A stretch of 64,000 nt of DNA, from positions 43,524,001 through 43,588,000 of the forward strand of contig OZ024741.1 in the NCBI GenBank assembly GCA_964016885.1. Reading direction: 5' to 3'. Below, piece after piece: positions 29,377 to 30,525 of the stretch (its first letter is position 1; each line of letters begins with the position of its first letter). Both the position numbers and the translations under genes were made by a program. Under the pieces are notes generated by a model that saw nothing but the letters and a program-made list of their open reading frames with translations, had not been told where the DNA came from and made no database searches. The stretch is from Eledone cirrhosa. Its lineage: Eukaryota.

Positions 29377-30525
29377 TCAAGATAAGCAGAACAAGTAAAA
29401 ATTCAATCAATTTTTCAAAATAAATCAAAATTAATATACAATCAAAATTAATCAAGATTAAAAAATATAATATAAATATTTACCTATTCTAATGGCCCAA
29501 ACTGTACAGTTTCACGGTGCAAAACATTAAATATCACCAGGATATTAATGGAAAAGCAACGATCATCAGAGAAGCATTTTCCCAATGTATTTACGGGTCA
29601 CTTTCACGACCTTTTAGACCTGTATTAGTTGGAGTGAGGTCATATATTTTGTCGTTCCTGGGGTTTTTAACCCCAGGACAGGAAAATGCTTCTCTGATGA
29701 TCGTTGCTTTTCCATTAATATCCTGGTGATATTTAATGTTTTGCACCGTGAAACTGTACAGTTAGGGCCATTAGAATAGGTAAATATTTATATTAAATTT
29801 TTTAATTTTGATTAATTTTGATTGTATATTAATTTTGATCTATTTTGAATTATTGATGGAATTTTTACTTATTCTGCTTATCTTGATATTATGTTCTGGT
29901 ATATTAAATTATTACCATAGAACCACCTTAAATCATAGACACACTATATATTTCCGGGGGTACATTGTACCCTCAGATATATATTAACCTTTTTCAATAA
30001 TCTCTATATGTAGAGATACAAATTTTGTCGTTATATTTAGTTACTAAAAATTTTTTTTTTTTGGTGGCGAGCTATAGACGGCGAGTCTACGATTTCCCGC
30101 CTTCACTATACACCAATGTATTTACGGGTCACTTTCACGACCTTTTAGACCTGTATTAGTTGGAGTGAGGTCATATATTTTGTCGTTCCTGGGGTTTTTA
30201 ACCCTAGGACAGGAAAATGCTTCTCTGATGATCGTTGCTTTTCCATTAATATCCTGGTGATATTTAATGTTTTGCACCGTGAAACTGTACAGTTAGGGCC
30301 ATTAGAATAGGTAAATATTTATATTATATTTTTTAATTTTGATTAATTTTGATTGTATATTAATTTTGATTTATTTTGAAAAAATGATTGAATTTTTACT
30401 TGTTCTGCTTATCTTGATATTATGTTCTGGTATATTAAATTATTACCATAGAACCACCTTAAATCATAGACACACTATATATTTCCGGGGGTACATTGTA
30501 CCCTCAGATATATATTAACCTTTTT
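29377..30525. mobile_element. Non-coding HHR-bearing repeat (retrozyme-like), 531-nt monomer; inverted fragment 29377-29582 plus ~1.8 direct copies
   Basis: CCAATGTATTTACGGGTCAC at 29582 and 30113; (TA)n on both sides. Confidence 0.88.
29685..29772 (+). ncRNA. Type I hammerhead ribozyme with extended stem II (copies 30216-30303 +, 29491-29578 -)
   Basis: AAUGCUUCU CUGAUGA U CGUUGC..CAUUAAUAUC/GAUAUUUAAUG..GCACCG U GAAAC UGUACA GUU AGGGCCAUU. Confidence 0.8.

Follow-up and report, generated by a model that had tools for sequence, protein, structure and literature searches.

A short non-coding unit that stands in tandem, next to an inverted copy of itself and between two (TA)n runs, raises the question of how it came to be there. 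The unit lies in a 64,000-nucleotide stretch of Eledone cirrhosa DNA, called the window below, and forms the third of three arrays of similar design (arrays 1–3, Table 1). We think it likely that array 3 is a non-autonomous Penelope-like element, an animal retrozyme, mobilised by a Penelope-type reverse transcriptase/endonuclease that was probably of the Hydra clade. As such, it is a variety of the non-LTR retrozymes and not a new class.

Table 1 Features of array 3 and the two companion arrays (positions in the window; offsets counted from the predicted cleavage site)
Feature	Positions	Strand	Remarks
Array 1	5171–6538	+	530-nt unit; two-ended layout as in array 3; tail 114–120 nt
Left (TA)n microsatellite	28995–29377		Target site
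Array 3 element, whole	29378–30526		Between (TA)n runs; 1.8 tandem 531-nt units plus an inverted copy of ~205 nt
Inverted, 5′-truncated copy	29378–29582	-	From purine tract (-82) to proximal end (+122..126)
Hammerhead copy 3	29491–29582	-	C3 at 29569; predicted cut after 29500; U for A at nt 1.1
Tandem part	29582–30526	+	1.78 units of 531 nt; 5′-truncated; distal end at +232
Hammerhead copy 1	29681–29772	+	C3 at 29694; predicted cut after 29763
Predicted monomer RNA, cut to cut	29764–30294	+	531 nt
Penelope-type "tail", internal copy	29890–29995	+	106–110 nt between the two ends
Bulged hairpin GUUC...GAAC, then CAC	29893–29926	+	Common to arrays 1 and 2; starts 4–5 nt behind the proximal end
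Purine tract GGAAAA, predicted pseudoknot 5′ strand	30212–30217, also 29681–29686	+	
Hammerhead copy 2	30225–30303	+	C3 at 30225; predicted cut after 30294
UUUUCC, 5′ strand of stem II internal loop	30239–30244	+	Predicted pseudoknot partner
Terminal tail	30421–30526	+	At this insertion end only
Right (TA)n microsatellite	30527–30555		Target site
Array 2	54686–56591	-	555-nt unit; two-ended layout as in array 3; tail 113–123 nt

The initial annotation of this DNA had described a unit of about 531 nt, a tandem-plus-inverted layout and (TA)n flanks, and all three were recovered: the period is 531 nt, blastn aligns 29374–29582 in inverted orientation with 30212–30420 at 98.6% identity, and (TA)n runs lie on both sides. 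The inverted and tandem parts meet head to head at 29582. The cut-to-cut monomer has a GC content of 31% and a longest stop-free frame of 67 codons, and its folding z-score is -6.3, with none of 100 shuffles folding as well (array 1, -5.3; array 2, -3.5). At the sequence level, array 3 therefore shows what is expected of a non-LTR retrozyme, namely, a hammerhead in at least two consecutive units (C3 at 29694 and 30225), a non-coding, low-GC and strongly self-paired monomer, and a repeated family. Indeed, among the sequencing runs compared with it at 80% likeness (X1, X4, X5, and X9), X1 yielded 318 matching contig pieces from several subfamilies, 58 of them at ≥99% likeness, and X4 and X5 yielded 16 and 19; for X9, where roughly 1 in 100 raw reads was covered, the 43 matches were AT-rich, partial and uninformative. 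Across 30152–30372, contigs of X4 and X5, which bear two further organism labels, differ from array 3 at 4–5 positions over 221–225 nt, and may reflect either close relatives or a recent transfer.

All three copies in array 3 hold a type I hammerhead core (CUGANGA, GAAA, and NUH) surrounded by three helices, with compensatory change in variants. The core, the palindromic stem III and the GUU site are intact in each copy, as annotated. In copy 2, the core occupies 30225–30231 and 30281–30284, stem II is 49 nt long, and the palindrome spans 30284–30293. The canonical G10.1-C11.1 pair is absent from the array 3 copies, which have U.U instead. This mispair had been taken as common to the arrays, but arrays 1 and 2 have C.A in all seven of their hammerhead copies and a sister subfamily has G-C. 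An outer stem II of about 6 bp does exist, although only five of its six positions pair in array 3, the other being a U.C mismatch; likewise, stem III is palindromic, but over a conserved span of 10 nt and not the 12 nt first given, since variants with A17 no longer form the A14/U17 pair. A strict descriptor, composed after the motif had been seen, gave seven matches in the window, all inside arrays 1–3, against none in 300 block-wise dinucleotide shuffles, which is more than chance would give. The descriptor misses 3 of the 10 hammerhead copies, where either stem I or the palindrome is disrupted. No Rfam hammerhead model was among the 117 matches at E ≤ 1, where microsatellite-driven and other weak matches appeared instead. 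A descriptor scan of viral contigs returned 120 loci, three of which passed loose stem filters and none of which had the palindrome, and all 13 matches to an exact 20-mer in metagenome contigs lacked the second half of the core; we take both results as chance.

The stem III palindrome contributes 0 kcal/mol alone and -13.4 kcal/mol as a duplex. It reads ACUGUACAGU in array 3 and ACUAAUUAGU in arrays 1 and 2, and a loose end in run X1 carries a further version, ACCGAUCGGU. Altogether there are four different stem III sequences, every one self-complementary over 10 nt. As a hairpin loop would not need a palindrome, this points to cleavage as a dimer, which is the published behavior of animal and Penelope hammerheads (PMC4209133). 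On paper, the array 3 ribozyme looks weak: the nested hammerhead is not the predicted minimum free energy (MFE) fold (-8.9 kcal/mol when constrained vs -15.6 for the MFE), and its local folding z-score is about 0. The MFE structure uses the pseudoknot helix in place of stems I and II.

That helix involves the 5′ strand, UUUUCC, of the pyrimidine internal loop in stem II, a loop that the initial annotation had noted while missing its predicted role. We predict a 6-bp pseudoknot between this strand and an upstream purine tract in two or three lineages, with registers that were picked post hoc. The pairing strands are GGAAAA/UUUUCC in array 3, GAGAAU/AUUCUC in array 2 and, for array 1, GAGAA/UUCUC in its inverted copy; the second copy of array 1 keeps four Watson–Crick pairs, and in its first copy the tract is truncated. 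From the end of the tract to C3 the distance is 7–9 nt in all three arrays. The share of 13-mers from the array's own monomer that pair as well is about 2% for arrays 2 and 3 and 8% for array 1. The geometry fits an arrangement with stems I and II side by side, and about 40% of hammerheads have a pseudoknot between these stems (Perreault et al. 2011, PMC3088659). An ENE-like triple helix was considered as a shared feature and dropped, as arrays 1 and 2 do not fit. Its elements do occur in the array 3 family (UUUU opposite UUUU, and an AAAA tract), where a U.A-U triple helix is speculation.

Judged from its sequence variants, the hammerhead fold of the array 3 family is under selection. Among the variant rows listed, those of record 15, an X4 contig (rows matched by depth, 11.4), give 17 substitutions out of its 19 differences. 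Both sides have changed in four stem II pairs (10.1/11.1, 30234/30278, 30247/30266, and 30250/30262); U.U at 10.1/11.1 has become a canonical G-C pair, and the U.C mismatch of outer stem II is repaired to U-A. The center of the palindrome has turned from UA to AU, U17 is A, and none of the 17 listed substitutions falls in the core or the pseudoknot strands. The same record also disrupts the pairs 30245/30268 and 30217/30302, and carries 30274 G>A with no partner change among those listed.

The link to Penelope elements lies in the insertion footprint, of which the tail had gone unnoticed in the initial annotation. Counted from the cut, the proximal end, that of the inverted copy, is at +122..126, and the distal end, that of the tandem part, is at +232; each lies in TA. 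Published Penelope insertions combine a partial tandem, an inverted 5′-truncated copy, a tail at one end and a bias for microsatellites (PMC8557442). Array 3 likewise has a partial tandem, an adjacent inverted 5′-truncated copy and (TA)n at both ends, together with two fixed 3′ ends, one of which extends beyond the other on one side only, as a Penelope tail does; this tail is longer than the 30–40 bp described (Craig et al. 2021, PMC8557442). Ends homologous in place to those of array 3 are found in arrays 1 and 2, with tails of 114–120 and 113–123 nt. The purified Penelope protein of Anolis acts on AT-rich DNA, which it cleaves and extends on both strands; it begins at two internal RNA sites, and the distance between them is the tail. 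Hammerhead cleavage is dispensable for the insertion of this element in vitro. Within the 64-kb window, no autonomous element was found whose terminus resembles array 3, and no tRNA module was found.

A pathway for the mobilization of array 3 can be proposed on this basis. Read-through of a tandem locus would give a multimeric RNA, in which two hammerheads would pair via their 10-nt palindromes in stem III and cleave behind GUU, the 6-bp pseudoknot holding stems I and II side by side during cleavage. The 531-nt unit would thus be released and may be circularised. The helper protein would bind the tail hairpins and nick (TA)n on both strands, and cDNA would be primed from two internal sites, at +122..126 and +232. 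As a result, a long tandem product would join one target strand and a short inverted product its partner strand, leaving the head-to-head junction. Speaking against the cleavage step, in Xenopus eight of nine predicted retrozyme dimers were uncleaved in vitro (10.64898/2026.07.22.740005).

Array 3 could, alternatively, be what remains of the terminal repeats of an autonomous Penelope element, amplified locally as a satellite, so that the unit itself would not be mobile. Li et al. (10.64898/2026.07.22.740005) propose local amplification from inserted termini, and 5′-truncated Penelope insertions have a similar look (PMC8557442). However, a whole ORF-less 531-nt unit lies between two hammerheads, both types of insertion end sit in (TA)n in array 3 as well as in arrays 1 and 2, and local expansion is not expected to yield an inverted copy whose end is fixed separately; we regard this origin as very unlikely. 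Mobilization by a helper would also be compatible with a ribozyme that is dead in the array 3 subfamily, its U.U and U.C mismatches abolishing cleavage while the helper still spreads it as a passenger. The sister subfamily pairs at both of these outer stem II positions, the predicted fold is weak, and the Anolis element inserts independently of cleavage in vitro. Nevertheless, U10.1.U11.1 is a natural and the best tolerated mispair (PMC3088659), the core, palindrome and pseudoknot strands are whole in all three copies, and the array 3 version recurs with 0–5 differences over 103–225 nt in contigs from runs labeled with three organisms. A dead passenger is thus rather unlikely, and we retain the reading of a mobilised retrozyme with a conserved hammerhead.

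The initial annotation had called array 3 unrelated in sequence to the other two arrays. Arrays 1 and 2 share 72% identity and so form one lineage. As for array 3, the annotation agrees with blastn, which listed no match to it from array 1 or 2 among the 40 matches listed, and with nhmmer, where a profile of arrays 1 and 2 failed to find it at E<10. In detail it does not stand: local alignment of array 3 to arrays 1/2 reaches z-scores of 3.2–5.2 against 200 dinucleotide shuffles (global alignment, about 49–50% identity, z 1.8–2.4), and GTTCT-N10-30-GAACCAC, a motif derived from the array alignment itself, has seven matches in the window, all seven in arrays 1–3. This motif corresponds to a bulged hairpin that has the same fold in the three arrays with different inner pairs, and is a candidate protein-binding or priming signal. 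The arrays also have collinear motifs and homologous ends in common, and the spacing of core, pseudoknot and palindrome is near-identical across them. Alternatively, families without common ancestry may have arrived independently at one ribozyme design and one size; the blastn and nhmmer results and the low global z-scores are in line with this, and the AT-richness of both sequences inflates local scores. Nonetheless, the local z-scores were taken against dinucleotide shuffles, all three arrays have the hairpin 4–5 nt behind the proximal end as well as a homologous distal end, and the common spacing also argues for descent, so that convergence seems improbable. The shared hairpin, collinear motifs and homologous ends are better explained by common descent, and arrays 1–3 likely derive, distantly, from one ancestor, although part of their likeness could come from shared helper-binding signals via convergence. 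The proposal of a class of elements rather than one family therefore holds in so far as a retrozyme of shared design is concerned, but arrays 1 and 2 belong to a single lineage to which array 3 is probably related, and the class has already been described.

Several Penelope elements lie in the window. A decayed, near full-length element of Hydra type, with the motifs RWK and DKT and a 1.2-kb 3′ region, occupies 57300–60920 on the minus strand; the Hydra label follows published motif criteria (PMC8557442) compared by eye. Its hammerhead (C3 at 57558) has a stem II that is long and irregular; its tail measures about 140 nt, and an inverted 130-nt hammerhead fragment (60922–61051, plus strand) lies at its 5′ end. 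Neither the hairpin common to the arrays nor the pseudoknot loop occurs in this element, and it is not the direct partner of the arrays. Further Hydra-type ORF fragments with RW-, DKT, and CxCX5C motifs are found at 33068–33460 and 61491–62612, the former preceded by a repeated inverted-repeat leader of ~150 nt (32846–32992). Neptune-like fragments, with a CX4CxxC linker, GIY-YIG, TA ends and short tails, lie at 3985–5167, 45010–45942, 48993–50820, and 38138–40744; they show tandem and inverted pieces, and array 1 adjoins the end of one of them at 5167–5171. A Pfam search of nine ORF fragments gave two matches, neither on the Hydra-type fragments, and the protein atlas gave no usable match for one fragment.

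Based on tail length, the (TA)n target and ribozyme traits, the Hydra clade is the best candidate helper for array 3, with somewhat better than even chances. By our count from the tables of PMC8557442, (TA)n is the target of 26 of the 27 Hydra families listed, and their hammerheads have U.U at 10.1/11.1 in 14 of 25 families and U17 in 10 of 25. The Neptune-like elements of the window also end in TA, so that a (TA)n target does not single out Hydra. It is possible, if less probable, that a Neptune, Poseidon or Naiad element served as the helper. The window is rich in Neptune-like fragments; among cephalopod Naiads, which target (TA)n, two are marked with split hammerhead cores (PMC8557442); and Xenopus retrozymes match the termini of Penelope elements, of which the groups Neptune and Poseidon are widespread (10.64898/2026.07.22.740005). 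However, the tail spans 31–42 nt in a Neptune-like element of the window, vs 106–123 nt in the arrays. Naiad was tried as the array partner and rejected, as no match was seen by eye at the consensus 3′ ends in the supplement of PMC8557442, where the cephalopod consensi carry no type I hammerhead of the array design. Moreover, five array motifs are absent from the published Naiad consensi, as they are from those of Chlamys and Hydra, and cephalopod Naiads are described as long inactive (PMC8557442). Naiads are reported to lack canonical hammerheads (PMC8557442); at the 3′ ends of two octopus consensi in its supplement, GAAAC stands upstream of CUGAUGA, as in a permuted type II or III hammerhead.

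Whether the template for insertion was a circle or a multimer is a separate matter. Reverse transcription across a ligated RNA junction may leave errors. In the inverted copies of array 3 (29499) and array 1 (5232), U stands at nt 1.1, directly after the predicted cut, with overall divergence of these copies at 3/209 and 16/565. Such a double U would be expected about once in 2,500 for a site named in advance, and this site was named afterwards; the inverted copy of array 2 lacks the U, which occurs in 2 of 10 copies overall. We found no literature source for junction scars, including in the accessible text of PMC4918200. The U at nt 1.1 is possibly a ligation scar or else chance. The two tandem copies of array 3 differ at 8 of 414 positions, six of them inside 32 nt; these differences look like distinct template units, which speaks against a single circle, in a stretch that is AT-rich. 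An uncut or partly cut multimer is thus favored as the usual template, and circles may serve as well. A more ambitious reading would make the arrays the first retrozymes tied to Hydra by their footprint, a tail of ~110 nt that includes a conserved priming hairpin, with an uncatalogued hammerhead (internal-loop pseudoknot, possible U.A-U triple helix, and obligate dimer) and a U1.1 scar showing ribozyme-made circles as templates. Taken as a whole, this is quite unlikely; if true, the scar would be genomic evidence that RNA circles are real transposition templates.

Array 3 resembles the animal non-LTR retrozymes (Cervera and de la Pena 2020, PMC7229834) in being a short non-coding tandem with a type I hammerhead per unit, a GC content below 45% and a highly self-paired monomer. 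It differs from those first described there in size (531 nt vs about 170–400 nt) and in its bipartite stem II of 49 nt with a predicted pseudoknot, as well as in its layout, which has an inverted copy and two fixed ends; the text available of that paper does not use the word "inverted". Linear and circular monomer RNAs are expected of a non-LTR retrozyme. Penelope elements were proposed as retrozyme mobilisers in the same work (PMC7229834). More recently, it was argued that retrozymes are non-autonomous elements derived from Penelope, and families of 51–972 bp were reported (Li, Clavereau and Pollet 2026, 10.64898/2026.07.22.740005). Array 3 satisfies their definition (a hammerhead in at least two consecutive units), falls within this length range and has the same proposed origin; the size of ~0.53–0.56 kb, annotated as a class of its own, does not set the arrays apart. 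For Li et al., the link to Penelope is sequence similarity to Xenopus termini, whereas for array 3 it is the ends, tail and target of an insertion. Their sampling, as given in the parts of that report available, includes no mollusc, and Hydra only in coral.

Hydra-clade elements (PMC8557442) share with array 3 the tandem and inverted parts, the tail, (TA)n and a type I hammerhead that often has U.U and U17, but array 3 has no ORF, a tail of 106–110 nt vs 30–40 bp, no sequence match found to them and a stem II of 49 nt in place of the short stem II hairpins of the published Hydra hammerheads. Animal type I motifs typically have such a palindromic stem III and cleave as dimers (PMC4209133), as predicted for array 3, and its U10.1.U11.1 is known from natural hammerheads (PMC3088659). 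By contrast, a predicted pseudoknot partner in the internal loop of an extended stem II, together with a dimer-type stem III, is a combination not found in the available text of PMC3088659 and PMC4209133. No title on this hammerhead architecture was found in the literature searched, whose figures and supplements could hold such a ribozyme, and the accessible text of PMC1636495 has no passage on GUU. On hammerheads or retrozymes of octopuses and other cephalopods, the Naiad paper alone was relevant in a search that covered few subscription papers. From a biological perspective, the mobility of animal retrozymes has so far been inferred from co-occurrence with, and similarity to the termini of, Penelope elements. 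Arrays 1–3 add a mechanical Penelope insertion footprint on a 0.5-kb non-coding unit, and with it a minimal template and a candidate signal for in vitro studies of a Penelope protein. As this ribozyme is missed by Rfam, similar hammerheads with a long stem II may be undercounted in animal genomes.

Finally, the window contains other small elements. A loose descriptor gave 14 matches in it, against a mean of 0.21 in 200 shuffles. More hammerhead-like motifs, all with a long stem II and in small TA-flanked elements, lie at 27960, 28798, 51125, and 52471 on the plus strand; the motif at 28798 has U.U at 10.1/11.1, and its element has a 69% relative at 43064–43353. At 27556–27690, a short GC-rich, MITE-like element with inverted ends lies between TA runs. 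An element of ~900 nt with terminal inverted repeats (31010–31920) carries, on the minus strand, what appears to be a broken mariner-type transposase.
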